From NCBI GenBank assembly GCA_965216315.1, contig CBDCFN010000016.1:896001-960000 (forward strand): DNA of 64,000 nucleotides, read 5' to 3'. This stretch comes from a bacterium. GTDB taxonomy: Bacteria; UBA10199; 2-02-FULL-50-16; JAJFLM01. Shown piece after piece: positions 18,985 through 41,718 of this stretch. The translations under genes and the position numbers were made by a program. The notes under the pieces are model-generated. The model searched no databases. It was not told where the DNA came from and saw only the letters and a program-made list of their open reading frames with translations. Position 1 is the stretch's first letter. Each line of letters opens with the position of its first letter.

Positions 18985-18989
18985 TTCCT

Positions 18990-20647: not shown

Positions 20648-20649
20648 AA

Positions 20650-22204: not shown

Positions 22205-22206
22205 AG

Positions 22207-22806: not shown

Positions 22807-23625
22807 ATGAGGTATCGTTTTTATGTCTTACTGGCCCTCACTTTTTTTGCGACGAGCTTCTTCAGCAGCGAAGCGATTGCCTTTAATGCCGGCGCCTATT
22901 TCGACAAAAATTGTACGAGTTGTCACACGGTCGGTGGGGGGGATGATATTGGTCCCGACCTCAAAGATATCTCCAAGCGTCGCTCCGAAGAATGGTTGAT
23001 CAAATTCATTCAATCGTCACAAAGCGTGATCAAGTCCGGTGATGCCGCTGCGATTGAGTTATTTAATAAATATAAGAAGAAAAAGATGCCTGACCAGGAT
23101 TTGAATGATTCAGAGGTCAAGGCGATATTGGCCTTTATCGAAAAGGGTGGGCCAGCCGAGCAGCCGATCGAAGCCAAGCCGGCCACAGCTTCCACTAAAG
23201 AAGACGTGGAAAGAGGCCATGATCTCTTTTTAGGGATTCAACGTTTCTCAGCGGGTGGGGCGGCATGTATTTCCTGTCATAGCGCCGGTGCCTTTGGTCC
23301 TTTGGGCGGCGGGACATTAGGTCCTTCATTGTCTCAGGCCTACTCCAAGTATGAAGATAGGGGGATGTCGAAGGCGCTCGCCAATACAGGCTTTCCAATT
23401 ATGAAGGAAATCTACGCGGACAAGCAACTCACTCCCGAAGAGGCCTTTGCCGTAAAGGCTTTTCTATATCAGGTAGACAAAAAGGGTGAGATTGCAGGGG
23501 ATTATCAGAAGAAGTTTCTCTTTCTGGGGATTGGTGGCGGTGTCATCGCCATGGGTCTCATTGATTTTACATGGCGTAAACGCCGCAAGAAGAGCGCCAA
23601 GCCTCGGCGCGGAGGTGTCTCATGA
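22807..23625 (+). CDS. narC: Membrane-anchored diheme cytochrome c (NarC-like)
   Basis: Signal peptide ending AIA; CTSCH and CISCH; C-terminal TM helix with basic tail; 4-nt overlap with narG; start moved to ATG 22807. Confidence 0.82.
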
Positions 23626-26600
23626 GTTGGATCCAGGACTTAGTGGCTCCCCAAACACGTAGTTGGGAAGATTTTTATCGTAATCGCTGGCAGCACGACA
23701 AGGTGATTCGCAGCACGCATGGTGTCAATTGTACGGGCGGCTGTTCGTGGAACATCCATGTCAAAGATGGAATTGTCACTTGGGAAATGCAGGCCTTGGA
23801 TTATCCGTCTCTGGAAAAATCACTGCCGGGTTATGAGCCTCGGGGTTGTCAGCGCGGTATTTCTTTTTCTTGGTACCTCTATAGTCCGATCCGCGTGAAG
23901 TATCCTTATATGCGCGGTGCTCTGCTCGATCTGTGGAGAGAGGCAAAGCACAATTTCAGCGATCCTGTCGAGGCGTGGGCATCGATTCAAAAAGATGAAG
24001 CGGCCCGCAAGAAATATCAGCAAGCGCGCGGTAAGGGCGGTTTTCGTCGCGTCCATTGGGATGAAGCCTTAGAATTGATGGCTGCGGCCAATATTTATAC
24101 GACCAAGGAGCATGGACCTGATCGGATTACAGGGTTTTCACCAATCCCGGCGATGTCGATGCTGAGTTACGCTTCGGGGGCACGTTTTCTTCAACTGATG
24201 GGTGGCGTGTGTTTGAGTTTCTATGATTGGTACTGTGACTTGCCGCCTGCCTCTCCGGAGATTTGGGGTGAACAGACCGATGTGGCGGAAAGCGCGGACT
24301 GGTATAATGCTAAGTTCCTCGCGGTCATGGGGGCCAATCTCAACATGACGCGAACGCCTGACTGCCATTTTGCGGCAGAGGCCCGTCACAATGGGAGTAA
24401 GATGGTCGTCTTTTCTCCCGACTTCAGTCAGGTCTCTAAGTATGCGGATCAGTGGGTTCCCATCAATGCCGGGCAGGATGGCGCCTTTTGGATGGCCGTA
24501 TCGCATATCGTGCTCAAAGAATTTCATCATGAAAAGAAGACGCCGTATTTCATCGACTACACCAAAAAGTTTACCGATTGTCCGTTTTTGGTCGAACTGA
24601 AGAAAGAAGGTGACAGCTACGTGGCCGGCAAATTTGTCCGCGCCGACCGTATCGATAAATATAAGAATGTGGAACTCGGCGAATGGAAGTTTTTGATGGT
24701 CGATGAAAAGACCGGCAACCCGGTGATGCCGGGGGGGGCTATGGGCCACCGTTGGCAGAAGAAGCCTGGTGACTGGAATCTGAAATTCGAGGACGGCGAG
24801 GATGGAACTGAATTTGAGCCGACTTTAAGTTTGCTGGAGAACAGTGACGGTACGGCGAGCGTCAAGTTTGATGATTTTGGTGACGATGTGAGTCATCAGC
24901 GTGAGGTTCCGATTAAAAAGCTGAAGACGACGGATGGCGAAATAGTCGTGACGACGGTCTATGATCTTTTGATGGGCCAGTATGGAGTCAGCCGTGGTTT
25001 AGGCGGCGATTATCCGAAGAGTTACGAAGAGGATGGGGCCTATACCCCGGCCTGGCAGGAAAGAAAGACCGGGATTGGTCAGAAAACCGTCATCGGGTTT
25101 GCACGGAGTTGGGCAAGCACGGCGGAAAGTACGAAAGGGAAGTGCACGGTTATTATCGGCGCTGGTATCAATCACTGGTATCACAACAATTTGATCTATC
25201 GGGCGGCGATTAATTCCCTGATGCTCTGTGGTTGTATCGGGGTTAACGGTGGTGGTCTGAACCACTACGTTGGTCAGGAAAAGTTAGCGCCACAGGCCTC
25301 GTGGGCGCCCATTGCATTTGCAAAAGATTGGCACAAGCCTTCACGCCTGCAGAATGCTCCTTCGTGGCACTATGTTCATTCCGATCAATGGCGTTATGAT
25401 AGTGGTCACAAAGGGTATCACAAATGTCCCGATAACGAGCTGACCGAAGGGCACTCCATCGATCACAATATTCGCGCGGTTAAGAATGGCTGGTTGCCTT
25501 TCTTCCCGCAGTACAACAAGAGCAATTTAGATCTCTGTCGCGAAGCCGAAAAGAAAGGCGCTAAGGACAATCAAGGCATCATTGATCATGTGGTTAGTGA
25601 ATTAAAAAGTGGCGAGCTCAAGCATACGATAGAGCAGCCGGATGCTGCGGATAGTTGGCCGCGTGTTTGGTACATCTGGCGCGGAAATGCGATTATGTCG
25701 AGTGCCAAGGGCCATGAGTATTTTCTCAAGCATTACTTGGGAACCCATCACAATGATATCGCGGAAGAACTGGCCGAAGGACAGGTCAAAGATGTGGCCT
25801 GGCAGAAAAATGCGCCCCAAGGAAAGATGGATCTGGTTGTCGACCTTAACTTCCGCATGGATACCTCGGCGCTCTATTCAGACATCGTCCTGCCGGCGGC
25901 CTCATGGTACGAAAAAGCCGATCTGAATTCGACGGACATGCATTCCTTTATTCATCCCTTGTCAAAGGCGATTCCTCCGGTTTGGGAGTCTAAGAGTGAC
26001 TGGGACATCTTTAAGGCGGTTGCCAAGAAGACGAGTGAAATCGCTAAAAAACATTGTCCCGAGCCTGTCAAAGATCTTGTGACGATTCCGTTGACTCATG
26101 ATACGCCGGACGAAATTGCTCAGCCCAAGATGCAAGATTGGAGCAAGGGGGAGTGTGAGCCGATTCCCGGAAAGACCATGTATAAGATGGCAGTGGTCGA
26201 ACGGGATTATACCAAGATTTACGACAAATATGTTTCGCTGGGGCCGCTTGCCAGTAAGACGCTTGGTGCGCATGGCATTAGTTATGAGGTTGAGGATTTC
26301 TATAACGAATTGGTTGAGACCGGTCCGACGGTCGAGTGGGAAGGGAATAAATATCCTTCCCTGGAGGAAGCGGATTATGCGGCCAATGCCGTCTTGAACT
26401 TGGCTCCGGAAACCAACGGGGAATTGGCCTATCGAGCGTATAAGCACGAAGGGGACCGCGTTGGAATTGATCTGACGGATCTTGCGAAGGATAGCCGTGA
26501 TTTCCGGGTCAGTTATACTGATTTGCAATCGCAGCCGCGTCGCATGGTCAATAGCCCGATCTGGTCCGGGTTGATGACGGATGGTCGGGCTTATTCGGCC

Positions 26601-27227
26601 TATTGCTACAATGTCGAATGGCTGGTTCCCTGGCGGACGCTGACCGGGCGACAGTCCTTTTATTTGGATCATGATGCCTACATCGCTTTCGGGGAACACC
26701 TGCCGACGTACAAACCGTCACCACGTCCGGAAGCATACGGCGATTTGCGTAAGAGCTTGCAAAGCGGTGATGCCAAGATGCTCAACTACCTGACGCCTCA
26801 TGGTAAATGGCACATCCATTCGACCTATGGGGATACGTTGCGCATGTTAACGCTTTCACGCGGGACGGAGCCCTTCTGGATGAGTGAAGAGGATGCCGCG
26901 GATCTGGGGATTCATGACAACGATTATGTTGAAGTGCACAACGACAACGGTGTTGTGGTGACACGGGCATGTGTGAGCGCGCGTATTCCGAAGGGTGTCT
27001 GTATTATTTACCACTCGCCGGAGCGGACTTATTCAGTCCCGCGTTCGCCGTTGCGCAACTTTAAGCGGGCCGGCGGTCATAACAGTTTGACTCGGACGCG
27101 GCTCAAACCGAACCTGATGGTCGGTGGCTATGCGCAATTCACCTATTTCTTTAATTACTGGGGCCCGACGGGGTGCAATCGCGATACCTTTGTAACAGTT
27201 CGTAAGCTCGAAAAGCTTGTATGGTAA
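23622..27227 (+). CDS. narG: Respiratory nitrate reductase alpha subunit (Mo-bisMGD, cytoplasm-facing)
   Basis: [12 protein letters not shown]...EPRGCQRG (FS0), [32 protein letters not shown]; no Tat signal. Confidence 0.96.
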
Positions 27228-27239
27228 GGATGGTGACCT

Positions 27240-28730
27240 ATGGATGTTAGATCGCAAATTTCAGTCGTCTTCCACTTAGATAAGTGCATTGGCTGCCACA
27301 CCTGTTCCATAGCGTGTAAGAACGTATGGACGGATCGCAAAGGTGCCGAATACATGTGGTGGAACAATGTCGAAACGAAGCCCGGCACGGGATACCCAAC
27401 GGAATGGGAGAATCAAGAAGAGTATAAGGGTGGCTGGGAAAAGAAAGGGGACGGTATCCAGTTAAAAGGTGCCGGTAAACGCCGTGGCCTGAAAAACATT
27501 TTCCATAATCCTAATCTTCCCATCCTTGATGACTATTATGAGCCCTGGACGTACCGTTATGAGGACCTTTTTAATGCCCCTCCAGGCGATGACCAGCCGA
27601 CGGCGCGCCCGGTTTCACTTGTTACCGGAAAAAATATGGAGATTAAGGCCGGCCCTAACTGGGATGATGATCTCAGCGGAAGTCCGGATTACGCCCGTAA
27701 CGATCCGAACTTAGATCAACTGTCGGAAGCCGAGCAGGAAGCGATGTTTCAGGTTGAAAAGTTGGTCATGTTCTATTTGCCGCGCATTTGTAATCACTGT
27801 CTCAATCCCGCATGTGTCGCAGGGTGTCCGTCTGGCGCGATTTATAAACGCGGTGAGGATGGGATTGTCCTGATCAATCAGGAAAAATGTCGTGCCTGGA
27901 GAATGTGTGTCACGGCCTGTCCGTACAAGAAAACCTATTATAACTGGAGTAGCGGAAAGTCCGAGAAATGCATTCTTTGTTATCCGCGTATCGAATCGGG
28001 TCAGGCGCCCGCCTGCATGCATTCCTGTGTGGGACGGATTCGTTATCTGGGGATGATGCTATATGATGCGGATCGTATCCATGATGTCGCTTCAGCCGAT
28101 GAGGCAGATGTCGGACAGCTCCAACGCGAGATGATACTCGATCCATTTGATCCTCAGGTGATTCGAGCTGCGCGTGAGAATGGCGTACATGATTCGGTGA
28201 TTGAATCCGCTCAACAATCACCGGTGTTCAAGTTTGTTAAGGAGTGGAAGATCGCCTTGCCGCTGCATCCCGAGTTTCGTACCTTGCCGATGCTTTTCTA
28301 TGTTCCTCCCTTATTGCCGATTATGGGAACGGTTAGCGATGAAGTCTATGAAAGTGTGACGGATGGTCTGTTTAGTTCCATAGAAATGAGTCGTCTGCCG
28401 ATTAAGTATTTAGCTTCATTATTCTCAGCGGGGAATGAAGGGATCATTCGCGAAGTGCTGAAGAAATTACAGGCCGTTCGCGTGCATCGTCGCCAAGTAA
28501 CGGTCGGAGATCAAGACGAGTCCGTTGTTTCACAGGCGCTTAAGGAGGTGGGGATGACCCCTGAAGAAGCGGATGCGATGTATCGATTGACCTCGCTGGC
28601 TAGTTTCGATGAACGCTTTGTTATTCCTCCGTCCCACCGGGAAGAGGCGATAGAAACGATCGCTAATGTTGACGATCGTAAGGGCGAAGCCGGGCTCGGG
28701 TTCCGCTTTGCCGGACAGAGGGGGTTGTAA
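27240..28730 (+). CDS. narH: Nitrate reductase beta (Fe-S) subunit
   Basis: DKCIGCHTCSIACK, RICNHCLNPACVAGCPSG, CRAWRMCVTACPYKK, KCILCYPR, PEFRTLPM. Confidence 0.97.
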   Translation: MDVRSQISVVFHLDKCIGCHTCSIACKNVWTDRKGAEYMWWNNVETKPGTGYPTEWENQEEYKGGWEKKGDGIQLKGAGKRRGLKNIFHNPNLPILDDYYEPWTYRYEDLFNAPPGDDQPTARPVSLVTGKNMEIKAGPNWDDDLSGSPDYARNDPNLDQLSEAEQEAMFQVEKLVMFYLPRICNHCLNPACVAGCPSGAIYKRGEDGIVLINQEKCRAWRMCVTACPYKKTYYNWSSGKSEKCILCYPRIESGQAPACMHSCVGRIRYLGMMLYDADRIHDVASADEADVGQLQREMILDPFDPQVIRAARENGVHDSVIESAQQSPVFKFVKEWKIALPLHPEFRTLPMLFYVPPLLPIMGTVSDEVYESVTDGLFSSIEMSRLPIKYLASLFSAGNEGIIREVLKKLQAVRVHRRQVTVGDQDESVVSQALKEVGMTPEEADAMYRLTSLASFDERFVIPPSHREEAIETIANVDDRKGEAGLGFRFAGQRGL

Positions 28731-28731
28731 C

Positions 28732-29292
28732 ATGGCATCGCATCGGGATCGCTATCAAACGTTATCAGACTTGCTTAAATATCCGGACGAGGGCTTTCAC
28801 GCTTTTGTTGCCGCTTGTGTCAGTAATCTAGAGGACTATCCCGAGAGCCTTGAGCAGCTGACACCTTTTCTGGACTATGTGAAGGGGGCGAGTCGGACCG
28901 AACTCGAAGAACTTTATATCCGGACTTTTGATATCCATGCAGTCTGCCATTTGGATATTGGATATGTCCTTTTTGGCGAGGACTACAAGCGCGGTCAATT
29001 TTTAGTCGAGATGAAGCAGGAGCAAATTCGAGCTGGTAATGATTGTGGAGCGGAGTTGCCGGATCATCTTCCTTGCGTGCTCAATCTTCTTGGCATGATG
29101 GAAGATCAGGCGCGCGCCCAGGACCTCGTCCAAATACTTGTATTGCCGGCGATTTACAAAATGATTCAGAGCTTTAAGAAGGCGGGAAATGTTTATCGCT
29201 GTGTCTTGGAAACGATCCAGTTAGTTGTTGAAGCCGATTACGGAAAGGTAGTGGCTTTGCCTACTTATAATCAGACGGAGGCCTCATTATGA
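28732..29292 (+). CDS. narJ: Nitrate reductase maturation chaperone
   Basis: EELYIRTFD, GEDYKRGQFL, ELPDHLP; start ATG 28732. Confidence 0.92.
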   Translation: MASHRDRYQTLSDLLKYPDEGFHAFVAACVSNLEDYPESLEQLTPFLDYVKGASRTELEELYIRTFDIHAVCHLDIGYVLFGEDYKRGQFLVEMKQEQIRAGNDCGAELPDHLPCVLNLLGMMEDQARAQDLVQILVLPAIYKMIQSFKKAGNVYRCVLETIQLVVEADYGKVVALPTYNQTEASL

Positions 29293-29975
29293 GCGATTAT
29301 CTCCTCTTTAGTGTTTATCCTTATATCGCCATAGCGATCGAACTCATTGTTTCTATTTGGCGTTTTCTCATTCGGCGCCATGAGTTTTCGAGTCTTTCGT
29401 CGGAATTTCTGGAGAGTAAAGAACTCTTTTGGGGGTCCGTACCCTGGCATTACGGAATCTTGTTTGTGTTACTCGGACACCTGGTTGCTTTCCTTTTTCC
29501 GGCGGAAATACTGGCGTGGAATAGCATGCCCGTGAGACTCTTGATTTTAGAGGTTACCGCCTTGACCTTCGGCTTGCTGGCTTTGGTCGGGATTGTCTTG
29601 TTGCTGATCAGGCGCGCGACCAATGCACGTATTCGGGTTGTTACATCTAAGATGGACGTCGCTATTCTCCTGATTCTCTTTGTTCAGGTGGCGAGCGGCG
29701 TTGGTATCGCCCTGACCATGCGTTGGGGTTCTTCGTGGTATGCCTCAGTATTGGTCCCATATTTGCGGTCGCTATTTGTATTGAATCCCAATGTGGCCCT
29801 CGTGGCGGATATGCCGCTACTAGTCAAGGTTCATATATTGTCGGCGTTTACGATTGTCTTGTTATTGCCGTTTACGCGGCTGGTGCATTTTCTCGTTATG
29901 CCGATCAATTATCTGTGGCGTTCATATCAATTGGTGATTTGGAACTGGGATAGAAAGAATATTCGGCGGCCATAA
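29289..29975 (+). CDS. narI: Nitrate reductase gamma subunit (diheme b)
   Basis: SSLSSEFLE, WHYGI...GH, KVHIL...PFTRLVH heme ligands. Confidence 0.96.
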   Translation: MSDYLLFSVYPYIAIAIELIVSIWRFLIRRHEFSSLSSEFLESKELFWGSVPWHYGILFVLLGHLVAFLFPAEILAWNSMPVRLLILEVTALTFGLLALVGIVLLLIRRATNARIRVVTSKMDVAILLILFVQVASGVGIALTMRWGSSWYASVLVPYLRSLFVLNPNVALVADMPLLVKVHILSAFTIVLLLPFTRLVHFLVMPINYLWRSYQLVIWNWDRKNIRRP

Positions 29976-30020
29976 GAGAAAAAGTTAACTTAAAGAGGGA
30001 GCGTGTAGAGGGGTGATGAG

Positions 30021-31808
30021 ATGAATATAGCTCATAAGGCAACTCGAATTAATCTGTTCAATTTTTCCACGAGGCCCATGCGGGCGTTTCACATGTCGTG
30101 GTTTGCCTTTTTTCTCTGCTTTTTTGCCTGGTTTGGTATCGCGCCTTTAATGGCGGTTGTCCGCGATGAACTGGGCCTTACTAAGGCGCAGATCGGAAAC
30201 ACAATCATTGCTTCGGTCGCGATTACCATTGTTGCGCGGCTTTTTATCGGTTGGCTCTGCGACCGGATTGGCCCGCGTTTAACATATACCTGGCTTTTAA
30301 TATTGTGCTCTTTCCCCGTCATGGGAATTGGTCTCGCACAAAGTTATGAAACGTTTTTATTGTTTCGTTTGGCTATCGGCGCAATCGGGGCTGCCTTTGT
30401 CATAACGCAGTACCATACCTCGGTGATGTTCGCGCCCAACTGTGTCGGGACGGCGAATGCGACCTCGGCCGGTTGGGGGAATCTCGGCGGCGGGGTCACG
30501 CAGATGATCATGCCGCTGATTTTTGCGGCCTTTGTTGGGTTAGGGTATTCGGACTTCTGGAGCTGGCGTCTGTCGATGGTTGTTGCCGGTGGCGTTTGTT
30601 TGGTTACTGGTGTTGCCTACTTCTTTCTGACAACGGATCTTCCCGACGGCAATTTTAAGGAGCTGCGGGCCAAGGGTCTGCACCCCGGTAAGGAGCACGT
30701 CAAAGGCAGCTTTTTGATGGCTTGCAAGGATTACCGGGTCTGGGCCTTGTTCATCATTTATGCGGCTTGTTTCGGGATTGAATTGACGATTAATAATATC
30801 GCTGCCCTCTATTTTAAAGATTATTTCGGACTCGGACTGAAGACAGCCGGTCTGGTTGCCGGTCTATTTGGCCTAATGAATATTTTTGCGCGAACCACCG
30901 GCGGCATCATCGGTGATAAATTTGGACATACGGGAGGGCTTAAAGGCCGCGTGAAATGGCTCTTTATTGCCTTATTTATCGAAGCACTCGCCTTAATGTT
31001 GTTTTCGCGGATGACGGTTCTGCCGCTGGCTATCGGAACGATGGTGGTCTTTAGTCTCTTTGTCCAGATGTCGGAAGGGGCTACCTATTCTGTCGTTCCT
31101 TTCATTAATAAAAAGGCCTTGGGTTCCGTTGCCGGTATTGTCGGCGCCGGCGGCAATATGGGTGCTGTTGCGGCAGGTTTTCTGTTCCGAGCTGAGAGTA
31201 TCTCCTGGCCGCAAGCCTTGTTGATATTGGGGGGCATTGTGGCTGTTTGTTCTTTTGCCACTTTCTTGGTGACTTTCTCCCCCGAAGCGGAAGCAGAAGT
31301 CAGAGAGGAGCACGATAAGGCATTGGCTCATCGTGCAGCTGCGGAAAAAGAGCGTGTTCCCTGGATTCATGTTCCGCCGCTGCCCCATGTCTTGAGCTTA
31401 ATCAAGCCAATGGATGCGTTGCGTGCCTTTCTCGGCGTCGCGCTGATCGTAAAGGGCGTCTATTTTATTATGAACATGCAGGAATTTGAAGTCATCGTTG
31501 GCACCGTAGGACAGTTCCAGAATGTTTTATCCTGGTATGTCGTGTTGGCCCACGTCATTGGTGGTGCGTGTCTCGCGATTGGCTTGGCGACGCGTTTTGC
31601 GGCATTTTTGAATATTACGGTGGTGCTTGGCGCCGTTATTTTTGTTCACTCGGCGGAAGGTTTGTTTAGCTCCGGGCAAGGCCTTGAGTTGACAATATTT
31701 GTGCTGTTTGCATTGTGCCTGCTTTTATGGCGCGGCTCCGGATATTTCTCGTTTGATGAACTGATCCGTTACAACAGCGACATTAAATCTGCGATGGCAG
31801 AAGAATAG
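30021..31808 (+). CDS. narK: NarK1/NRT2-type nitrate transporter (MFS) fused to a C-terminal DoxX domain
   Basis: FHMSWFAFF.CFFAWF, GTANATSAGWGNLGGG, GIVGAGGN; an extra ~130-aa 4-TM tail LRAFLG..KG..GLATRFAA..GSGYFSFD. Confidence 0.9.
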   Translation: MNIAHKATRINLFNFSTRPMRAFHMSWFAFFLCFFAWFGIAPLMAVVRDELGLTKAQIGNTIIASVAITIVARLFIGWLCDRIGPRLTYTWLLILCSFPVMGIGLAQSYETFLLFRLAIGAIGAAFVITQYHTSVMFAPNCVGTANATSAGWGNLGGGVTQMIMPLIFAAFVGLGYSDFWSWRLSMVVAGGVCLVTGVAYFFLTTDLPDGNFKELRAKGLHPGKEHVKGSFLMACKDYRVWALFIIYAACFGIELTINNIAALYFKDYFGLGLKTAGLVAGLFGLMNIFARTTGGIIGDKFGHTGGLKGRVKWLFIALFIEALALMLFSRMTVLPLAIGTMVVFSLFVQMSEGATYSVVPFINKKALGSVAGIVGAGGNMGAVAAGFLFRAESISWPQALLILGGIVAVCSFATFLVTFSPEAEAEVREEHDKALAHRAAAEKERVPWIHVPPLPHVLSLIKPMDALRAFLGVALIVKGVYFIMNMQEFEVIVGTVGQFQNVLSWYVVLAHVIGGACLAIGLATRFAAFLNITVVLGAVIFVHSAEGLFSSGQGLELTIFVLFALCLLLWRGSGYFSFDELIRYNSDIKSAMAEE

Positions 31809-31819
31809 GGGAAGGGCGC

Positions 31820-33451: not shown

Positions 33452-33469
33452 TTTGTTGGAGACTATGGG

Positions 33470-34060
33470 ATGGAGCGTTTACGGCCTAAATTCATTACAC
33501 TTGCAGTCATTGTCGCTGTAGTCGTGTTGCTGAGTGTCTTGATAAAAGAATGGTATCGGATCGGGATTAACCAAGGGTATGAGCCCGATCAGCCGATTGA
33601 CTATTCACATAAAATTCATGCGGGCGATCATAAAATAGCCTGTTTGTATTGTCACTTTGGCGCGGAAAAGAGCCGTCATGCCGGGATTCCTCCGACGCAG
33701 GTCTGCATGAATTGCCATAGTGTCATTAAGAAAGATTCGCCGGAGATCGCCAAGATAAAAAAAGCGCTCGCGGAAAAGAAGCCGATTGAGTGGGTGAAGG
33801 TCCACAATTTACCAGATTATGTTTACTTTAATCATAAGCAACATGTGAAGGGCGGTGTTTCCTGTCAAGACTGCCATGGCGCCGTGGAGACAATGTCGCG
33901 GGTCAGACAAGTCGAGCCTTTGACGATGGGCTGGTGCATTGAGTGTCATCGCGAAAAAGGTATTACGCCGCCAGAAGGACATTTTACGGAGATGAAGAAA
34001 GGGACAGTAGAGGCCGGTTTCCGCTTTGGTGGAATGGACTGTGCTAAATGTCATTATTAA
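33470..34060 (+). CDS. actA: Alternative complex III pentaheme cytochrome c ActA
   Basis: N-terminal TM; QPIDYSHKIHAG; five CxxCH (CLYCH, CMNCH, CQDCH, CIECH, CAKCH); LTMGWC. Confidence 0.92.
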   Translation: MERLRPKFITLAVIVAVVVLLSVLIKEWYRIGINQGYEPDQPIDYSHKIHAGDHKIACLYCHFGAEKSRHAGIPPTQVCMNCHSVIKKDSPEIAKIKKALAEKKPIEWVKVHNLPDYVYFNHKQHVKGGVSCQDCHGAVETMSRVRQVEPLTMGWCIECHREKGITPPEGHFTEMKKGTVEAGFRFGGMDCAKCHY

Positions 34061-34064
34061 GCCA

Positions 34065-37010
34065 ATGAAACGAGACGAAACAAAAAAAACCTATTGGAAG
34101 TCATTAGAGGAGCTGCATCAGGATCCGGAGTTTCTCGAACAATCAAAGGATGAGTTCCCTGAGTCTGCACCGAATCGCCGTGACTTTCTTAAGCTGATGG
34201 GCTTTAGCGTGACGGCGGCGTCTTTGGCCGCCTGTTCCCGGTCACCGGTGTATAAGGCGATCGCATATCTGGATAAGCCCGTCGATACAACGCCGGGCGT
34301 GGCGAATTACTATGCAACGACCTGCGCCGGCTGTGAAGCGGTCTGTGGCTTGTTGGCAAAAACGCGTGATGGTCGGCCTATTAAAATCGAAGGCAATCCC
34401 GAATCTCCGATAAATACAGGGAGTACCTGTGCGACCGGGCAGGCTTCGGTGCTGTCACTCTACGATGGTGCGCGCCTGCAAGGACCGCAGCTAGCTGCGG
34501 CAAAATCAAGTTGGAATTCGATTGATAAGTCGGTGCGCGAGGGTCTTCAAAGTGCTGTCGCGGCGGGAAAGAAAATAGCTTTGCTGACGGGCACGTTGAT
34601 GAGCCCGACGACACGCCAGCTGATAAGTGAGTTTACTGCGCATTATACGAATGCGGAACATATTACTTATGATCCCGTCTCTGTTGATGCGATTTATGCG
34701 GCCAATCAGGAGAATTTTGGTAAGGCCGTTATTCCCAGTTACCTCTTCGATAAGGCCAATGTCATCGTGGGTGTTAACGCTGACTTTCTGAATACTTGGA
34801 TATCACCGGTCGAGTTTACGCAACGATACAGCAAGGGCCGCAAGCTTGGGGATAAGTCAGAGATGTCGCGGCACGTTCAGTTTGAGTCCTATGTTTCGTT
34901 GACGGGGAGTAATGCCGACCAAAGGGTTGGTATCCAGCCATCGCAACAGGGTTTGGTGCTCTGGGGGTTGCTTGCCGAGATAGCCCGCCTTGCCGGTGGT
35001 GCCTCCGTTCCAACTCCGGATCTGAGTGGTTTGGATGCAGCATTTATTAAGAAAACCGCCCATGAATTGTGGAAGAGTCGCGGCGAGTCTTTAGTGGTGT
35101 CCGGGAGTAATGACGTGGCTCATCAACGTCTTTGCAACGCTATCAATGCGCAATTAGGCAATGTTGGCAGGACGATTGACTTAGATAATCCAATTCGTCG
35201 CAATTCGGGGACTTCTAGGTCGATTCAAGAGCTGGTTGCCGATATGCAGAAAGGGGAGGTTGGCGCGCTTATTATTTATGGTGTCAATCCCGCCTATGAC
35301 TACGCGGAGGCTGAGAAGTTTAAGGAAGGCCTTAAAAAGGTCAAATTATCCGTCTCATTGGATCCTTATCGCACCGAAACGGCGGCGTTAAGTAAGGTGT
35401 TGGCGCCTGATCTTCATTATCTGGAGGCCTGGAATGATGCCGAGGCGAAGGCCAACCTCTTTCACTTAACGCAGCCGACAATAGCGCCGCTCTATAATAC
35501 GCGTGCGGCTCAAGACAGTCTCTTGAAGTGGATGGGAAAGAATACGGATTATTATCATTATCTTAAGGACGCTTGGAAAAGTAAGATTTTTTCGCAGCAA
35601 TCGCGTTTTGCTAGCTTTAAGTCTTTTTGGGATCGCGCCCTGCATGATGGCGGAGTGGCCTTTCCTGCACAGACCCCGAGGCACCATGCCTTTTCGGGCA
35701 ATGTCAGTTCATCCATAGCGCAGGTGAAAGGGCAGCAGGGCAAGGGAGGTTATGAGCTTTATCTTTATGAAAAGGTGGGCGTACGAGATGGCCGCCACGC
35801 AAATAATCCCTGGCTTCAAGAGCTGCCGGATCCCGTTAGCAAAGTGACCTGGGATAATTATGCAAACATGGCGCCTGAGGAAGCGAGCCGTCTGGGTCTG
35901 AAACAGGGAGATATGATTCGACTCAGTGTGGGCAATCGCAAAATCAAATTGCCGGTCTATCTGCAGCCCGGACATCCGGTCAAAACAATTTCTGCGGCCC
36001 TTGGTTACGGGCGCAAGCAGGCGGGGAAGGTTGGGAATAATGTCGGTGGCAACCTCTATCCTTTTGTGACACTAACGAAAGAGTCTTTTATTTATCATTC
36101 AGGCGGGTTGGATGTCAGTAAGTCCACTGGACGGCACAAATTAGCTGTCACGCAAACACACAATTCGATGGAAGGTCGGCCGATTATCAAGGAAACGACA
36201 CTTCCGGCCTATCAGGCGAATCCAAAGTCCGGTAACGAAGACAAAGTTCATTTAGTATCGTTGTGGCCTGAGCATAAATACACTGGGCAGCGCTGGGGGA
36301 TGGCGATCGATTTGAATGCCTGTACGGGGTGTTCGAGTTGTGTGGTTAGCTGTCAGGCGGAGAATAATGTTCCGGTCGTTGGGCAAGACGAAGTCTACCG
36401 GCGTCGCGAGATGCATTGGATAAGGATTGATAGGTACTATAGTGGCACTGAAGAGAATCCCGATGTCGCCCATCAGCCAATGATGTGCCAGCATTGTGCG
36501 AATGCTCCTTGCGAAACGGTCTGTCCGGTGCTTGCCACCGTTCACAGCTCGGATGGGCTGAATCAGCAGGTTTATAATCGCTGTGTGGGGACCCGCTATT
36601 GCGCCAATAACTGTCCGTACAAAGTTAGACGCTTCAATTGGTTTAACTATGCGGACAACGACAAGTTTGATTACAACATGAATAGTGAGATCGGTAAGAT
36701 GGTTCTCAATCCCGATATTGTCGTTCGGTCACGCGGCGTGATGGAGAAATGCTCCATGTGTATCCAACGTATCCAGGAAGGGAAGTTGAAGGCACGGGAT
36801 GAGGGTAGGAAGGTGAAAGACGGGGATATCCAGATGGCATGCCAGCAGTCCTGTCCGTCAGATGCTATTGTATTTGGCGACTTGAGCGATCCTAAAAGTC
36901 GCATTTCGAAGCTTGTTAAAAATGATCGTTATTATCGCGTCTTAGAAGAGCTGAATGTACAACCCGTTGTGGGTTATCTGACGAAAGTTAGGAATATTGA
37001 GAAGGGTTAA
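34065..37010 (+). CDS. actB: Alternative complex III subunit ActB (Tat lipoprotein, Mo-less molybdopterin fold plus Fe-S domain)
   Basis: YWKSLEEL, NRRDFLK..LAAC, NNPWLQELPDP, CTGCSSCVVSC, CQHCANAPCETVCP, CVGTRYCANNCPY, EKCSMC; start moved to ATG 34065. Confidence 0.94.
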   Translation: MKRDETKKTYWKSLEELHQDPEFLEQSKDEFPESAPNRRDFLKLMGFSVTAASLAACSRSPVYKAIAYLDKPVDTTPGVANYYATTCAGCEAVCGLLAKTRDGRPIKIEGNPESPINTGSTCATGQASVLSLYDGARLQGPQLAAAKSSWNSIDKSVREGLQSAVAAGKKIALLTGTLMSPTTRQLISEFTAHYTNAEHITYDPVSVDAIYAANQENFGKAVIPSYLFDKANVIVGVNADFLNTWISPVEFTQRYSKGRKLGDKSEMSRHVQFESYVSLTGSNADQRVGIQPSQQGLVLWGLLAEIARLAGGASVPTPDLSGLDAAFIKKTAHELWKSRGESLVVSGSNDVAHQRLCNAINAQLGNVGRTIDLDNPIRRNSGTSRSIQELVADMQKGEVGALIIYGVNPAYDYAEAEKFKEGLKKVKLSVSLDPYRTETAALSKVLAPDLHYLEAWNDAEAKANLFHLTQPTIAPLYNTRAAQDSLLKWMGKNTDYYHYLKDAWKSKIFSQQSRFASFKSFWDRALHDGGVAFPAQTPRHHAFSGNVSSSIAQVKGQQGKGGYELYLYEKVGVRDGRHANNPWLQELPDPVSKVTWDNYANMAPEEASRLGLKQGDMIRLSVGNRKIKLPVYLQPGHPVKTISAALGYGRKQAGKVGNNVGGNLYPFVTLTKESFIYHSGGLDVSKSTGRHKLAVTQTHNSMEGRPIIKETTLPAYQANPKSGNEDKVHLVSLWPEHKYTGQRWGMAIDLNACTGCSSCVVSCQAENNVPVVGQDEVYRRREMHWIRIDRYYSGTEENPDVAHQPMMCQHCANAPCETVCPVLATVHSSDGLNQQVYNRCVGTRYCANNCPYKVRRFNWFNYADNDKFDYNMNSEIGKMVLNPDIVVRSRGVMEKCSMCIQRIQEGKLKARDEGRKVKDGDIQMACQQSCPSDAIVFGDLSDPKSRISKLVKNDRYYRVLEELNVQPVVGYLTKVRNIEKG

Positions 37011-38408
37011 GTGATGATATCAGCCGCTGAAAATGAGAGGCCATCAGCTAACGTTGTGCGCGGAGTCAGCAAACTCCGCCAGATTACCGCGGAAGTCTTA
37101 CGTCCATTGGAGACGCGCCCGGGAGCGGCTTGGTGGCTGACCTTTGCGGTCGCGTGCTCGGCCTTAGGAGTGGGGGCCGTAATGATCGCCTATCAGATTG
37201 CCGTTGGTATCGGCGTTTGGGGGCTCAATAAAACGATTGGCTGGGCCTTTGACATCACTAACTTCGTGTTCTGGATTGGTATTGGTCATGCCGGAACCCT
37301 GATTTCGGCTATTCTACTATTATTTAGACAGCGTTGGCGTAATTCGATTAATAGAGCTGCCGAGGCCATGACGATTTTTGCCGTGATGTGCGCCGGTATC
37401 TTTCCCGTCATTCATATGGGACGTCCATGGCTCGCCTATTGGGTCTTTCCCTATCCAAACACGCGTGGTTCGCTGTGGGTCAATTTTCGCTCACCGCTGT
37501 TATGGGATGTCGTCGCGATTAGCACCTATTTCACGATCTCTTTTGTTTTCTGGTATATCGGAATGATCCCCGACCTAGCCTTGATGCGTGATCGGGCTAA
37601 AGCCGGGATCAAGAAGAAGCTCTGCGCCCTATTTAGCATGGGTTGGAATGGTTCACAACGTACCTGGGCACGTTATGAGATGCTCTGTTTGATCTTGGCC
37701 GGTTTGGCCGCGCCGCTTGTAGTCTCGGTTCATACCATTGTGAGTATGGACTTTGCCACGTCCGTTATTCCTGGGTGGCACACGACTATTTTTCCGCCAT
37801 ATTTCGTCGTTGGGGCGGTTTTCTCCGGCTTCGGGATGGTCATGACGCTGATGATCATCACCAGAAAGGTGATGAACTGGGAAAAATACATTACTTTGCA
37901 ACATCTCCAGGCGATGGCCAAGGTTCTGCTTGTAACGGGTTCGATAGTCGGATTTGCGTACTTAACCGAGTTTTTTATGGCTTGGTATAGTGGTAACCAA
38001 TTTGAGCTATTTACCTTTGTTAATCGCGCAACCGGGCCTTATTGGTGGGCCTACTGGATCATGATGAGCTCAAACTTGATTGCGCCCCAGCTTTTTTGGT
38101 TTAGGAAGGTTCGCAACAGCGTTCCGATGATGTTCTTCCTCTCTATCATCGTTAATATCGGGATGTGGTTTGAGCGTTTCGTAATCATCGTAACCTCGCT
38201 TCATCGAGATTACCTGCCGTCGAGTTGGGCGATGTATACGCCGACTGTGATTGAGGTTGGCACGTTGATCGGGAGCTTCGGACTCTTCTTTACCGCGTAT
38301 CTACTTTTTATTCGCGTGCTGCCGGCGATTGCAATCAATGAGGTGAAAGCGATTACCAAGCTGGACACTGATTCGAGTGATTCGGAGGAGGCTGTGTCTC
38401 ATGGTTAA
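37011..38408 (+). CDS. actC: Alternative complex III quinol-binding subunit ActC (NrfD family)
   Basis: [52 protein letters not shown]. Confidence 0.95.
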
Positions 38409-38922
38409 ACGCTATGTCATAGGGTTCTTTGAATCGGACAAGACCATACTTAAGGCTGTTCGGATGCTGAAAAAAGAGGGCGTGAAGATTTATGATGCCT
38501 ATACGCCTTATGCGGTCCATGGACTGGATGAAGCCATGGGGTTGAGACGATCACGCTTAGGAATTGTGACATTTTTTGCCGGGGCGATCGGTTGTGCAAT
38601 TGCGCTTCTATTTCAGGTCTGGACCTCTGCCTTTGACTGGCCGGTGAATGTTGGAGGGAAGCCGGGTAACTCGTGGCCCGCATTTATACCGGTGACATTT
38701 GAATTAACCGTGTTGATAGGGGGCTTGGTGACCGTTGCGGCGTTCTTTATGCGGTCAAAGTTATTGTGGGGGAATAAAATTCATCTTCCGATTGAAGGGG
38801 TGACTGATGATGCCTTTGCTTTAATTCTCGATAATACGGATGGGGGCATTGATATAAGTGCTGCGGAGAGACGCATGCAAGAGCTTGGTGCGACGAAAGT
38901 GATGGAACAGGTGTTGATGTGA
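38401..38922 (+). CDS. actD: Alternative complex III subunit ActD (DUF3341)
   Basis: [37 protein letters not shown]; start ATG 38401. Confidence 0.93.
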
Positions 38923-39536
38923 AGCGTTATACCTTAAAAATCTGTGTTGTGAGCCTGTTAGGTCTGACCCTGTTGGCGTGTGAGCGAGACCATCGTAAGC
39001 CTGCTTTTATGTTTTTCCCGGAAATGGTGGAATCGGTTCCCTATGATAGTTTCGCCCCGAATGCCAACCATAAGGACGGTAAGACGTTGCAGCGTCCTGT
39101 TAAGGGGACAGTCCCTCGAGGATTTCTGCCTTATCCTTTTCCGGAGGACCGAGAGCGGGCTGCCAAAGAGCTCAAGAACATCCTGCCGAATACCAAGGCT
39201 GTTGTGGCGCGTGGCCAGCATTACTATGAGGCCTTTTGTCTTCCGTGTCACGGAGTGATGGGTAAAGGGGATGGGCCGCTGATTCCTAAGTATCCGAATC
39301 CGCCTTCATTTACGGCCAAGAGTATGCGTCATATGCCGGAGGGAGAGATCTATCACGTCATTACAATGGGATCCGGGCAGATGGCGCCCTATGCTACTCA
39401 AATTGACCCCGAGGATCGCTGGGCAATTGTTCGTTATGTACAAGTATTGCAGAAAGCAGGGAGGCCGACCGGACAGCCTGAGGCGCAAGAAGAAGTGAAG
39501 GCTTCTCCTCAAGAAGTCATTGAAGGAGGATTATAA
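38919..39536 (+). CDS. actE: Alternative complex III monoheme lipoprotein cytochrome ActE
   Basis: Lipobox LLAC, GTVPRG, CLPCHG, GQMAPYA..DRWAIVRY. Confidence 0.92.
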   Translation: MKRYTLKICVVSLLGLTLLACERDHRKPAFMFFPEMVESVPYDSFAPNANHKDGKTLQRPVKGTVPRGFLPYPFPEDRERAAKELKNILPNTKAVVARGQHYYEAFCLPCHGVMGKGDGPLIPKYPNPPSFTAKSMRHMPEGEIYHVITMGSGQMAPYATQIDPEDRWAIVRYVQVLQKAGRPTGQPEAQEEVKASPQEVIEGGL

Positions 39537-39540
39537 GACG

Positions 39541-40710
39541 ATGAAACCTATTCCGGCATTTAAAATGAAGCCCCGTTACAATTATATCGCTGGGGCGCTG
39601 ATGGCCTTGGGTCTCATCACCATCGCGGTGGCTTTTTATGTCGATCCTGTTCGCGCATGGGCTAACTTGCTGATTGATAATTTTCTTTTCATGTCATTGG
39701 GTCTCGCCGGAGTGTTGATTATCGCACTTGTGAATGTTGCCAAGGGGAGATGGGCAGGTGTGCTTAAAAGGGTTCCGGAAGCCATGATGTCTTGTTTGCC
39801 TTATGCCTTTATTTTGATGCTACCATTAGGATTGGGCCTGCATTCTATTTATCACTGGACTCATGCGGATGTTGTGGCCAATGACACGCTTCTGCAGCAC
39901 AAGGCACCGTATCTGAATGCAACATTCTTCATGATTCGTATGGTCATTTTCTTTGCTATTTGGATTTTTTTCGCAAAGTTCATGCGAAAGCATTCATTGC
40001 GCCAAGACAATGATGCAGACATGGTTCATTATAAAAGGAGTTATAAGGGGTCCGCTGCCTTCATAGTGGTGTTTGCGGTGACATTTTCTTTTGCCAGTTA
40101 TGATTGGCTCATGTCCGTAGAGCCACATTGGTTTAGTACGATATTTTCGCTTTATACTTTTAGCAGTCTCTTTTTACATGGAATTGCCGCGTTGACGTTG
40201 ATTGTAACGTTGCTCTATGAGCGCAATTATTTAGTCGGTTACGTCAATGAAAACCATCTCCATGACTTAGGTAAGTTGCTTTTCGCTTTCAGTACTTTTT
40301 GGGCTTACATCTGGATTTCACAGTACCTGCTGATTTGGTATTCGAATATTCCCGAGGAGACGACTTATTTTGTGCTTCGTAAGGATGAGGATTGGAACTG
40401 GCTCTTCTGGCTTAACCTCGGGATTAATTGGGTGGTGCCTTTCCTTGTATTGATGCCACGTGCGGCCAAAAGAAACGCTGCCTTGCTGAAACGCGTATCC
40501 ATTACCTTGCTTATCGGCTACTGGCTTGATCTTTTCTTGCGAGTGGCTCCCAACGTGCTTTTGGAAAGGAAAATCGGACTGATTGAGATTTTCATGGCGT
40601 TGGGGTTTGTGGGGCTCTTTTTCTGGGTGACAGGGCGTGCCCTGGGCAAGGCGCCATTAATCGCTCGCAATGATCCTTATTTACAAGAGAGCTTAAATCT
40701 GCATCAATAG
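39541..40710 (+). CDS. actF: Alternative complex III membrane subunit ActF
   Basis: DWLMSVEPHWFSTIF, HLHDLGKLLFAFS.FWAY, QYLLIWYSNIPEET; start ATG 39541. Confidence 0.93.
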   Translation: MKPIPAFKMKPRYNYIAGALMALGLITIAVAFYVDPVRAWANLLIDNFLFMSLGLAGVLIIALVNVAKGRWAGVLKRVPEAMMSCLPYAFILMLPLGLGLHSIYHWTHADVVANDTLLQHKAPYLNATFFMIRMVIFFAIWIFFAKFMRKHSLRQDNDADMVHYKRSYKGSAAFIVVFAVTFSFASYDWLMSVEPHWFSTIFSLYTFSSLFLHGIAALTLIVTLLYERNYLVGYVNENHLHDLGKLLFAFSTFWAYIWISQYLLIWYSNIPEETTYFVLRKDEDWNWLFWLNLGINWVVPFLVLMPRAAKRNAALLKRVSITLLIGYWLDLFLRVAPNVLLERKIGLIEIFMALGFVGLFFWVTGRALGKAPLIARNDPYLQESLNLHQ

Positions 40711-40717
40711 GGCCATT

Positions 40718-41371
40718 ATGAAAGATGACCCGATCAAGCGCTTTGTTGAACATGATTTGCCCGTGGCTGGCATGCCGCTCTCTCCGATGGAACCACCTGA
40801 GGCCACCGCACCTCCGTCGATTGAAGCCGTTGAATATGCCGACCTAAAAGGGCCGCTCAAGCAGTTATGGGATGAGCATGAAGACTACCTTAAAGTATTG
40901 GCGGTTTTAGATAATGCACTCATAGCCCTGCGAGAAAATAGTTGGCTGATGACGCCGGAGATTTCGACCGGCATTAAACATTTCTTTCAGTATGTCGATG
41001 AAAGGGCGAGTTCTCATAATAATAAGGAAGAGCGGGCTCTTTTTCCCGTGCTACGTGAAAAGTTGATTGAAGCAGGAGAATGCAGTCCGGGAGAAGATAA
41101 GACGACACCCGTTGATGTCATGGAAGAGGAGCATGATAAAGTAGGTCAGTCGGCTGCAATCATGTTTACGCTTCTTGGGCTTGCGCCTCGCGTCGAGGAT
41201 GAGAAAATTAGGAATATGCTATTTGATCACGCTTGCAACTTGGGACAGGAAATCGTTGAGACGATGAAGCTGCATATCTTTCGCGAAAATAATATAATTT
41301 TCCCATTGGCGCAAAAACTTATTGCGGATGAAGATTGGGACAGTATTCACAAGAAAATGAAGCGGTATTAA
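40718..41371 (+). CDS. Hemerythrin-like domain protein
   Basis: DEHE, HNNKEERALFP, VMEEEH, LHIFRENNIIFPLAQ; N-terminal SPMEPP motif. Confidence 0.85.
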   Translation: MKDDPIKRFVEHDLPVAGMPLSPMEPPEATAPPSIEAVEYADLKGPLKQLWDEHEDYLKVLAVLDNALIALRENSWLMTPEISTGIKHFFQYVDERASSHNNKEERALFPVLREKLIEAGECSPGEDKTTPVDVMEEEHDKVGQSAAIMFTLLGLAPRVEDEKIRNMLFDHACNLGQEIVETMKLHIFRENNIIFPLAQKLIADEDWDSIHKKMKRY

Positions 41372-41718
41372 TTTGAACGATCTGACGAAGGTTGGTGAGC
41401 GGCATCTTTGATAGCAGCCTTAGGAATGAAAGTAATCTTACAGTCGGTCGCTGCGGAGCAGGTGCAGCAGAACGGTGTTCCATCTAATATGTGATCGACG
41501 CCAACGAGCTGGCCATCGGAGATGCTGAAAACTTTTTCCTCACTGCATTTGCAGTCACTGCTAGAAAAATCAATCGTACCACTGTGGATGACATAGGCCC
41601 CGTACGGCTGGTGCTCTTCATAAAAGAGCACTTGTCCCGCCTTGTAATGGACAAGTTTGCCATGATCGATCAGTTTTTCTATTTGGGAGGTGACTGCCGT
41701 CAACTCATCATTGGTCAT
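41368..41718 (-). CDS. Stand-alone cyclic-nucleotide-binding (Crp-type sensor) domain, no HTH
   Basis: YKAGQVLFYEEHQPYGAYVIHSGTI resembles the sensor domain of the adjacent regulator; 116 aa. Confidence 0.75.
   Translation of the reverse strand: MTNDELTAVTSQIEKLIDHGKLVHYKAGQVLFYEEHQPYGAYVIHSGTIDFSSSDCKCSEEKVFSISDGQLVGVDHILDGTPFCCTCSAATDCKITFIPKAAIKDAAHQPSSDRSN

Follow-up and report, generated by a model that had tools for sequence, protein, structure and literature searches.

A conserved operon joining nitrate reductase genes to those of Alternative Complex III, and a possible electron route between the two enzymes

Alternative Complex III (ACIII) is viewed as a stand-in for the cytochrome bc1 complex in aerobic and photosynthetic electron-transport chains, and is usually encoded beside heme-copper oxidases. 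The nitrate reductase NarGHI is the textbook reductase that needs no complex III. Why, then, does one bacterial operon appear to encode both? The operon lies in a stretch of 64,000 nucleotides (nt), hereafter "the window," from contig CBDCFN010000016.1 (positions 896,001 to 960,000) of a genome assigned to the bacterial phylum UBA10199. We find that this nar-ACIII operon is real and conserved, and that the pairing recurs in four phyla. The pairing suggests that a quinol-oxidizing complex regarded as "aerobic" also feeds nitrate respiration. In our assessment, ACIII is here very probably a dedicated partner of the Nar system that is expressed together with it; that it passes menaquinol electrons by way of the cytochrome NarC into NarI and NarGH is a reading we hold tentatively, with slightly less than even confidence. 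Genomes, loci and families are cited, where they must be told apart, by our own labels (G, L and f with a number; G000 is the window genome).

The operon consists of 14 co-directional open reading frames (ORFs) on the plus strand, from window position 22702 or 22807 to 41371, in the order narC-G-H-J-I-narK1-narK2-actA-B-C-D-E-F-hemerythrin (22807-41371; Table 1). The start of narC is likely to be 22807, because a signal peptide begins there (Met36 of the long ORF). Neighboring genes overlap by up to 65 nt or lie up to 45 nt apart, and narK2 is 18 nt from actA; narJ, actB and actD likely start at internal ATG codons, and the apparent long overlaps therefore vanish. An initial annotation, made from the window's letters, had proposed such an array with gaps of 45 nt or less, and both its coordinates and its gene families were borne out by Pfam and NCBIfam. 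It had also noticed no internal terminator. Consensus scans compared with shuffled sequence gave 27 terminator-like sites (23.4 expected) and 21 promoter-like sites (23.3 expected), and none of either kind falls in an intergenic gap. We infer that the 14 genes are co-transcribed.

The identity of the six act products is clear from several sides. The solved structures closest to ActB, ActC and ActF are ACIII chains, those of 6BTM, 6F0K, 6LOD and 8K9E (scores to the 6BTM chains are in Table 1). The genes stand in the canonical ACIII order, including actD (PF11821), and the hallmark pair of cytochromes is present: a pentaheme ActA with an N-terminal hydrophobic segment, and a monoheme ActE with a lipobox-like LLAC site, its predicted anchor. 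The window ActA (196 amino acids) lacks the extra N-terminal cytochrome c domain discussed below. ActB combines an RRDFLK motif of the twin-arginine (Tat) type with a TIGR04519 match and Fer4 domains, and its export by the Tat system is predicted. A Pfam scan found no PF00384 or PF01568 match in ActB, in keeping with a MopB-like domain predicted to lack the Mo cofactor. For the nitrate reductase, NarG, NarH and NarI score above their equivalog cut-offs, the N-terminus of NarG has no twin-arginine (RR) signal, and two NarK-family genes accompany them; the matches of narK2 to its families are clear, and both fall under the curated cut-offs. The operon is thus predicted to encode a Thermus-type, cytoplasm-facing NarCGHI with NarJ, two nitrate/nitrite transporters, a complete ACIII and a di-iron repair protein.

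Conservation was assessed in 93 species genomes of the phylum, which has one class (narG was counted at E <=1e-150). We found narG in 19 genomes and ActD in 37, and the nar-ACIII gene order in 10 genomes of five families. In nine of these (G000, G010, G027, G031, G060, G062, G075, G076 and G086), narG and ActD lie 10-11 kb apart on the same strand; in G077, the contig ends inside actC. By tblastn, all ten share the order narC-G-H-J-I, transporter(s), actA-F, hemerythrin, with 43-84% protein identity to the window. A hemerythrin homologue closes nine of the operons, and the tenth is cut by a contig end. The last transporter gene is separated from actA by -19 to +18 nt in all 11 other loci examined, and each nar-ACIII genome has a single ActD. 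The G075 locus (L110, G075:C1:684001-704000, in a single-contig genome) has frame breaks in narG and narH, which could be operon decay or sequencing errors; narH falls into two frames, narG lacks its 5' part and the actB match is shortened.

The presence of ACIII also follows that of narG. The five carrier families comprise 29 genomes, of which 12 have narG and 11 have ACIII, all 11 being narG carriers, and ACIII occurs in 0 of the 17 genomes that lack narG, where the families were grouped after the data were seen and relatives are not independent samples. (The 11 are ten genomes with ActD plus G077, which has actA-C before its contig end.) In the narG carrier G002 (80% complete), the contig ends shortly after narK. 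A second NarG clade of the phylum (1430-1440 bits; G011, G013, G014 and G083) has the order narCGHJI-hemerythrin-narK with no ACIII adjacent, and genes for molybdenum cofactor (Moco) synthesis come next in two of the four. The hemerythrin gene lies directly 3' of narI in this ACIII-less clade (L018, L019, L020 and L113). In the window and its relatives, ACIII thus has genes of the nar operon on either side. Of seven ACIII loci in the phylum that are not linked to nar, six continue from actF into coxII (a cytochrome c fusion)-coxI-coxIII, with SCO1 before these genes in 5 of the 6, and ACIII-(SCO1)-caa3 is the classical arrangement.

Among genome contigs of other organisms, we inspected the best 80 of 583 ActA relatives, which did not include the in-phylum ones. 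In this set, 50 loci have cox genes next, 24 are of other or truncated context, three are nar-linked, and three, all from Acidobacteria, have narC-like and narI-like genes immediately 5' of actA without narGH. Nar-linked ACIII occurs in metagenome-assembled genomes (MAGs) of Byssovorax (Myxococcota; narCGHJI-actA-F-narK-narK), Ignavibacterium album (Ignavibacteriota; narGHJI-K-K-actA-F-moaA-Rrf2) and a member of Planctomycetota (L056), and the position of ACIII within the nar operon differs among them. The adjacency seen in the initial annotation is therefore conserved in ten genomes of five families and in MAGs of three further phyla.

In a FastTree analysis of NarG plus NarH (17 rows, no outside outgroup), a branch with support 100 and length 0.35 separates the enzymes of every ACIII-linked locus, whichever of the four phyla it comes from, from the in-phylum unlinked clade. 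In trees of ActB plus ActC, the in-phylum nar-linked ACIIIs group with acidobacterial ones (support 97-99), apart from the in-phylum cox-linked clade (99-100). An approximately unbiased (AU) test under the LG+G4 model rejected the hypothesis that every nar-linked ACIII belongs to one clade (p-AU 0.0049; the tested group was named after the first tree was seen), which means that the pairing was formed, or formed anew, on more than one occasion. That one NarGH lineage was joined to ACIII repeatedly, at differing positions, argues for selection on the pairing, not mere hitch-hiking.

Table 1. Features of the nar-ACIII operon and its flanks (window positions)
Feature	Position	Strand	Evidence and remarks
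moaE, moeA, second hemerythrin, TauE-family exporter, moaC/B, moaA, mobA	16610..22234	-	NCBIfam, Pfam
tatA, 56 amino acids, divergent from narC	22365..22535	-	PF02416, 67.8 bits
FNR/Dnr-type box	22619..22630	+	TGATCTATGTCA; motif match
FNR-type box	22703..22714	+	TGATTAATATCA; 93 nt 5' of narC ATG at 22807
narC	22807..23625	+	PF00034; exported diheme cytochrome c, C-terminal membrane anchor
narG, nitrate reductase alpha	23622..27227	+	TIGR01580, 1538 bits (cut-off 1084)
narH	27240..28730	+	TIGR01660, 686 bits (cut-off 524)
narJ-like chaperone	28666..29292	+	likely start 28732; TIGR00684, 50.9 bits, below cut-off 59.35; operon position fits narJ
narI, diheme cytochrome b	29289..29975	+	PF02665; TIGR00351, 131 bits (cut-off 106)
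narK1, NarK-family MFS transporter with C-terminal DoxX	30021..31808	+	TIGR00886, 304 bits, just below cut-off 311.7
narK2, NarK/NarU-like	31820..33451	+	NF011608, 270 bits (cut-off 836); TIGR00886, 251 bits (cut-off 311.7)
actA, pentaheme cytochrome c, N-terminal transmembrane segment	33470..34060	+	five CxxCH motifs; alignments
actB, Fe-S subunit with MopB-like domain	34026..37010	+	likely start 34065; TIGR04519, RRDFLK motif; 6btm_B, 721 bits
actC, NrfD-like quinol-binding membrane subunit	37011..38408	+	PF03916; 6btm_C, 642 bits
actD	38377..38922	+	PF11821, 183 bits
actE, monoheme lipoprotein-like cytochrome c	38919..39536	+	one CxxCH, LLAC lipobox-like site, PF13442
actF, second NrfD-like membrane subunit	39520..40710	+	6btm_F, 235 bits; 6f0k_F, 231 bits
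hemerythrin/RIC-like di-iron protein, last gene of operon	40718..41371	+	PF01814; weak TIGR03652
cNMP-binding protein, small, convergent	41368..41718	-	family matches
FNR-type box	41777..41788		between genes for cNMP-binding protein and CRP/FNR-family regulator
CRP/FNR-family regulator, convergent	41791..42504	-	scores below curated cut-offs

The regulatory signals around the operon would fit a single anaerobically controlled unit. The FNR-type boxes that the initial annotation placed upstream were found at two sites 5' of narC (Table 1), and the window contains six matches to TGATNNNNATCA, compared with 1.69 expected; 0 of 100 shuffles reached six. Such boxes precede narC in all ten in-phylum nar-ACIII loci and are often paired 22 nt apart. 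Within 2 kb 5' of actA, they occur in only 2 of the 10 loci, at differing places, and no conserved signal for a separate promoter was found there. Homologues of the convergent genes for the cNMP-binding protein and the CRP/FNR-family regulator flank the operon in four relatives (L013, L107, L108 and L109). The operon is most likely switched on by FNR under anoxia. Further TGATNNNNATCA boxes outside it, one in Table 1 and others at 43304-43315 and 48226-48237, hint at a small local FNR-type regulon. In G031, a gene of the NnrS family, NO-response heme-copper membrane proteins, lies directly 5' of narC (L014 41-844).

The remainder of the genome (2.96 Mb, 16 contigs, 98.3% complete) was searched for other partners of ACIII. 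The one ActD match lies in the nar operon, which makes this the sole ACIII; it is not the only complex III, as a Rieske/split cytochrome b complex with a multi-cytochrome-c protein is present, and a Rieske/split cytochrome b occurs in all ten nar-ACIII genomes. The genes for this b6-petD-like complex lie at G000:C16:1616300-1621400 (L011 4342-9420) and are followed by that of an 897-amino-acid protein with multiple class I cytochrome c domains; this unusual "bc" complex with its multi-cytochrome-c protein is common to families f1, f4, f9, f14, f15, f18 and f20. The genome has two COX1 and two COX2 matches, all within two clusters for A-type oxidases. The initial annotation's statement that there is no terminal oxidase thus holds for the operon and fails for the genome. 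One of the clusters, SCO1-coxII(cytochrome c)-coxI-coxIII, is kept at G000:C16:1418000-1422100 (L009 5996-10061); a lipoyl synthase gene occupies the upstream position where other families have ACIII, and among the nar-ACIII genomes, this type of COX1 (510 bits) occurs in the window genome alone. Two PF02621 matches were found, and menaquinone is likely synthesized by the futalosine route. The genome also has a RuBisCO_large match of 145.6 bits (406-amino-acid frame, G000:C16:235833-236594), probably a RuBisCO-like (form IV) protein.

For reductases of nitrite, nitric oxide or nitrous oxide, to which ACIII might supply electrons according to a second option in the initial annotation, the search of the window genome returned no partner. 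NirK and NrfA had no matches, and NirS had only weak cd1-propeller matches of <=34 bits. No third heme-copper enzyme accompanies the two A-type oxidases, and the genome therefore lacks Nor and cbb3. The nos_propeller model PF18764 had no match in a search whose control was also silent, and the COX2 search for CuA proteins was used instead; since it returned only the two CoxII proteins, NosZ is also lacking.

NarC is a candidate link between ACIII and Nar. It has a signal peptide, two CxxCH motifs, a C-terminal transmembrane helix (271-289 in long-ORF numbering) and a basic tail. To our knowledge, the role of NarC has been undefined since its discovery in Thermus. A search with NarC returned 131 relatives at E <=1e-10. 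Five of them (P0116-P0120) consist of a complete ActA preceded by a domain like the first domain of NarC, with an extra transmembrane helix between the two; this leading cytochrome c domain is 52% identical to that of NarC over 124 amino acids, and their ActA part is 51% identical to the window ActA. NarC also matches residues 58-145 of Flavobacterium johnsoniae ActA (6btm_A, 444 amino acids; E 5.9e-9), and an orphan ACIII of the phylum (G013) has an ActA with six CxxCH motifs and this N-terminal domain (39% identity). The cytochrome c domain of CoxII and NarC share a heme-site motif.

The accessible text of PMC8552683 describes the N-terminal domain of Flavobacterium ActA as a mobile, membrane-anchored sixth heme and proposes that it acts as a shuttle, taking electrons from ActE/ActA and delivering them to cytochrome aa3; Rhodothermus marinus ACIII lacks this domain, and the extra heme c of caa3 takes its role. 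Because the window ActA is without the domain and CoxII shares the motif, the acceptor domain appears to have three alternative attachment points: ActA, oxidase subunit II and, in the window, nitrate reductase. Thermus NarC is reported to bind NarI in two-hybrid assays and to be needed for Nar maturation (PMC7694296, in the text accessible to us). A predicted complex of the periplasmic part of NarC with ActA and ActE scored 0.00, which is uninformative either way.

A second line of evidence comes from clusters that have kept NarC and NarI but not the catalytic subunits. Among metagenomic sequences, we examined the best 80 of 486 ActA relatives; the search patterns had been built on nar-linked ActA, and the counts therefore describe that ActA subclade only. 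In 60 of the 80, a narC-like gene (about -1450 nt) and a narI-like gene (about -800 nt) lie directly 5' of actA, with no narG or narH. The others are three nar-linked loci (L114, L117 and L125, in the last of which narI is directly followed by actA), 11 with a short upstream region and six of other kinds. The separate narC-like and narI-like genes are supported by tblastn and Pfam; a "NarC-NarI fusion" in L027 and a 270-amino-acid "NarI" ORF in L026 were discarded as longest-ORF artefacts of high-GC DNA. Removal of narGHJ from narC-G-H-J-I-act yields exactly this narC-narI-act arrangement. CoxI genes were found in 0 of the 17 metagenomic loci with at least 9 kb downstream of actA.

In an alignment of 56 NarI-like sequences, H64 and H182 (window numbering), which we take from the E. 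coli structure to be ligands of the distal heme, are kept wherever not gapped. The presumed proximal-heme ligands H54 and H200 are both kept only in the nar-linked L117 and L125 (L114 has no narI), and the pair has been lost from nearly every sequence of the narC-narI-act type; only four truncated or partial cases depart from this. Thus, NarC and the periplasm-side half of NarI have stayed with ACIII after the catalytic subunits were gone, the simplest reading of which is that NarC/NarI works with ACIII. In two acidobacterial clusters, actF is followed by a gene for a protein of 940-1039 amino acids with five CxxCH motifs and a Big_5 Ig-like domain (L026 9963-13082; L029 17358-20180), which may be the terminal acceptor of the NarGH-less system.

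We therefore propose the following route, in which each step is conditional. ACIII would oxidize menaquinol at ActC, and electrons would pass through its Fe-S clusters and then the hemes of ActA and ActE. From there, they would be handed to the N-terminal heme domain of NarC, acting as the counterpart of the mobile domain of Flavobacterium ActA and of the cytochrome c domain of caa3 subunit II. NarC would reduce the periplasm-side (distal) heme of NarI, from which electrons would cross the membrane to NarH, NarG and nitrate. This route would run in parallel with direct quinol oxidation by NarI, and would make ACIII an added, second coupling site in nitrate respiration: the protons of quinol would be released outside as electrons move inward, and ACIII, which has been called proton-translocating with coupling to quinol oxidation (PMC7439408, accessible text), may add pumped protons. 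We infer the direction and path of the electrons, and with them any supercomplex and any energy gain. The same route had been one of two options in the initial annotation, and it now has comparative support, although it stays conditional. A broader version, possible but doubtful in our view, is that NarC and periplasm-side NarI form the docking or acceptor module of an ACIII lineage, that is, a modular NarCI-ACIII machine. At the same doubtful level, the machine might be a two-site nitrate-respiring supercomplex where NarGH is present, and might, without NarGH, use heme bD only and either another acceptor or Q-loop-like chemistry.

Several considerations weigh against the proposed route. The first is that NarI looks fully able to serve itself. 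It keeps all four histidines aligned with heme ligands of E. coli NarI (H54, H64, H182 and H200; aligned to 3egw_C and 1q16_C), and Arg83 stands at the position of E. coli Lys86, a residue of the quinol site. With these ligands and a basic Arg83 kept, NarI probably oxidizes quinol directly, and ACIII would be dispensable for nitrate reduction. Arg83 was considered as a mark of ACIII-linked NarI and rejected, because the unlinked nar clade also has arginine; for the same reason, we see no sign that NarI has given up oxidizing quinol itself. Second, the additional route would pay only if ACIII pumps protons, as proposed from structures, and electron flow from a c-type heme to NarI heme bD may be uphill. 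Third, the solved structure closest to the NarC domain is 2l4d, an SCO1/cytochrome c fusion (56 bits, against 39 bits for ActA), and the domain family is therefore wider than ACIII. Fourth, in Thermus the proposed direction of electron flow through NarC is outward, with Nir and Nor receiving electrons that come from NarI (PMC7694296, accessible text). Finally, completeness of 98.3% means that the gene absences listed above are not absolute, and some relatives encode candidate outward acceptors. A NirK-like gene was found in two of five relatives checked (G010 and G027; 205-222 bits, below cut-off), the one in G010 lying about 12 kb away from the operon. In G086, a qNor-like gene is found downstream of the operon, at a distance of 3.6 kb. 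An outward role for electrons in these relatives is possible. The NarI ligands, the Thermus model and these NirK- and qNor-like genes are the reason why we grade the route as we do and reserve high confidence for the partnership.

The best-surviving alternative, which we judge unlikely, takes these points as its starting place. ACIII and NarC would then form an anaerobic complex III, an FNR-induced quinol:cytochrome c branch that sends electrons outward to NirK, Nor, peroxidases or aa3 at low oxygen, with Nar using quinol directly. In the Thermus model, NarC provides the connection to Nir and Nor under repression of complex III (PMC7694296), and besides the relatives' NirK- and qNor-like genes, the caa3 cluster of the window genome (SCO1, coxII-cytochrome c) is of the type that follows ACIII elsewhere. 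However, Nir, Nor, Nos and Nrf were not found in the window genome, NirK-like genes were not found in three of the five relatives checked, and NirS was found in none of the five. Moreover, all ten nar-ACIII genomes carry the same split cytochrome b type and COX1 genes, and their ACIII-less sisters also have oxidases (in family f4, COX1 in 14 of 14 and cytochrome b in 12 of 14), so that genomes with the same oxidases and cytochrome b never carry ACIII when they lack narG (the 0 of 17 in five families given above).

It is also conceivable, and we think quite unlikely, that the operon is a co-transferred and co-regulated island useful at low oxygen, with no direct electron transfer between ACIII and NarC. 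The patchy distribution within families suggests that the operon is gained and lost as one piece, NarGH and ActBC give broadly congruent trees inside the phylum, and NarI looks self-sufficient. Passive cohabitation accords poorly with a pairing rebuilt independently from differing ACIII lineages at differing operon positions, with narC-like and narI-like genes that stay by actA without narGH in most of the metagenomic loci, and with a NarC domain homologous to ACIII's own shuttle domain.

Those metagenomic loci invite a more radical reading, in our opinion improbable, that NarCI-ACIII is one unit with a chemistry of its own (a second quinone site, Q-loop-like, or a periplasmic outlet) to which NarGH is an optional cytoplasmic add-on. 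The narC-narI-actA-F arrangement without narGH is the majority among the nearest metagenomic ActA relatives, only the distal heme ligands are kept in their NarI copies, and the pentaheme Ig-like-domain protein is encoded 3' of actF in L026 and L029. Such a unit has no biochemical precedent, the window NarI is complete, ordinary and beside an intact NarGH, and retrieval from nar-linked ActA favors this very subclade.

One of two published hypotheses for a six-gene cluster of this kind is that it is a new membrane-bound nitrite reductase that uses the nitrite made by Nar (PMC10732223, accessible text). Its location downstream of nar and the failure to find a recognized nitrite reductase in the window genome fit this proposal; its six subunits do not, as all match solved ACIII chains along their length (Table 1 for ActB, ActC and ActF). 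ActA has five CxxCH motifs and no CxxCK, 11 histidines are invariant in five nar-clade ActA proteins and 10 of these 11 are invariant or nearly so in all 46 nar- or cox-linked ones, and ActB has neither PF00384 nor PF01568, in keeping with the predicted lack of the cofactor. We consider the proposal highly improbable for this operon. Scarcely credible is a reverse, Nitrobacter-type nitrite oxidoreductase, with NarC delivering to oxidases and ACIII serving reverse electron flow, for although the nxr cluster of Nitrobacter is similar to NarC-type nar clusters (PMC7694296, accessible text) and the genome has two aa3-type oxidases, FNR-type boxes precede narC, neighboring genes are for heterotroph-type fatty-acid oxidation, the sole RuBisCO_large match is weak and looks RuBisCO-like, and the carriers in other phyla belong to heterotrophic groups.

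The flanks of the operon contain further genes of interest. The initial annotation had pointed to a divergent tatA and to Moco genes upstream, and both assignments stand (PF02416; mobA, moaA, moaCB, moeA and moaE). Homologues of the Moco cluster adjoin nar genes in two relatives (L018 and L019). Within it, at 18532-19742, lie the second hemerythrin (150 amino acids) and the TauE/SafE-family anion exporter, which may export nitrite or sulfite, because homologues adjoin nar genes in the same two relatives. The DoxX domain of NarK1 is PF07681 (residues 466-543), and the same fusion occurs in G086 (L106 7819-9585). A free-standing DoxX gene lies directly 5' of actA in a Bacteriovorax MAG (L028 9252-9692). 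DoxX/DoxD are quinone-linked membrane proteins.

Because an ACIII built into nar operons is found in four phyla and is gained and lost with nar, both textbook pictures with which we began are incomplete. If ACIII does feed Nar through NarC, nitrate respiration in these organisms would have a second coupling site and a yield above the usual 2 H+ per 2 e-, which would matter for growth-yield modeling of soil and sediment nitrate reducers, and NarC would gain a clear job. The work also draws attention to the narC-narI-ACIII cluster, very common in metagenomes and unstudied. ActB has been described as taking part "exclusively in aerobic respiration," a view used to date its origin (PMC10100899, accessible text), and ACIII is reported to feed N2O reduction (Refojo 2012, as cited in the accessible text of PMC9270275). 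If the modular NarCI-ACIII reading is correct, the complex is not "exclusively aerobic."

The adjacency itself is partly in print. Our search of full-text literature for a described nar-ACIII operon gave only PMC10732223, and subscription papers (Refojo et al. 2010-2013) and supplements may mention it. PMC10732223 reports 13 cases, in MAGs of Planctomycetota and KSB1, in which Nar genes lie upstream of a six-gene "novel NrfD-type complex," matching the window both in this adjacency and in the six types of gene; our Planctomycetota MAG (L056) agrees. In its accessible text, the cluster is not called ACIII, a nitrite reductase or an unspecified respiratory role is proposed, and there is neither a link to NarC nor a phyletic analysis; the carriers belong to phyla other than that of the window. 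The part that would be new here is the proposed wiring of ACIII, through NarC, to a cytoplasm-facing Nar.

Two better-known systems resemble the operon. Like narCGHJIKT of Thermus thermophilus as presented in the accessible text of PMC7694296, it has narC-G-H-J-I followed by two transporter genes and a CRP/FNR-family regulator nearby, and its NarC, judged by the described architecture alone, resembles the membrane-anchored periplasmic diheme cytochrome c of Thermus. The Thermus nar operon described there, however, has no ACIII, and its NarC is proposed to send electrons to Nir and Nor. Like the ACIII-aa3 and ACIII-caa3 systems of F. johnsoniae (6BTM) and R. marinus (6F0K), the window operon encodes the same six subunits in the same order, and those chains use a tethered cytochrome c acceptor homologous to the first domain of NarC. 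In the window, however, the operon includes no oxidase and appears to be controlled by FNR, and the tethered cytochrome c is found on the nitrate reductase, as NarC by NarI, instead of on ActA or oxidase subunit II.

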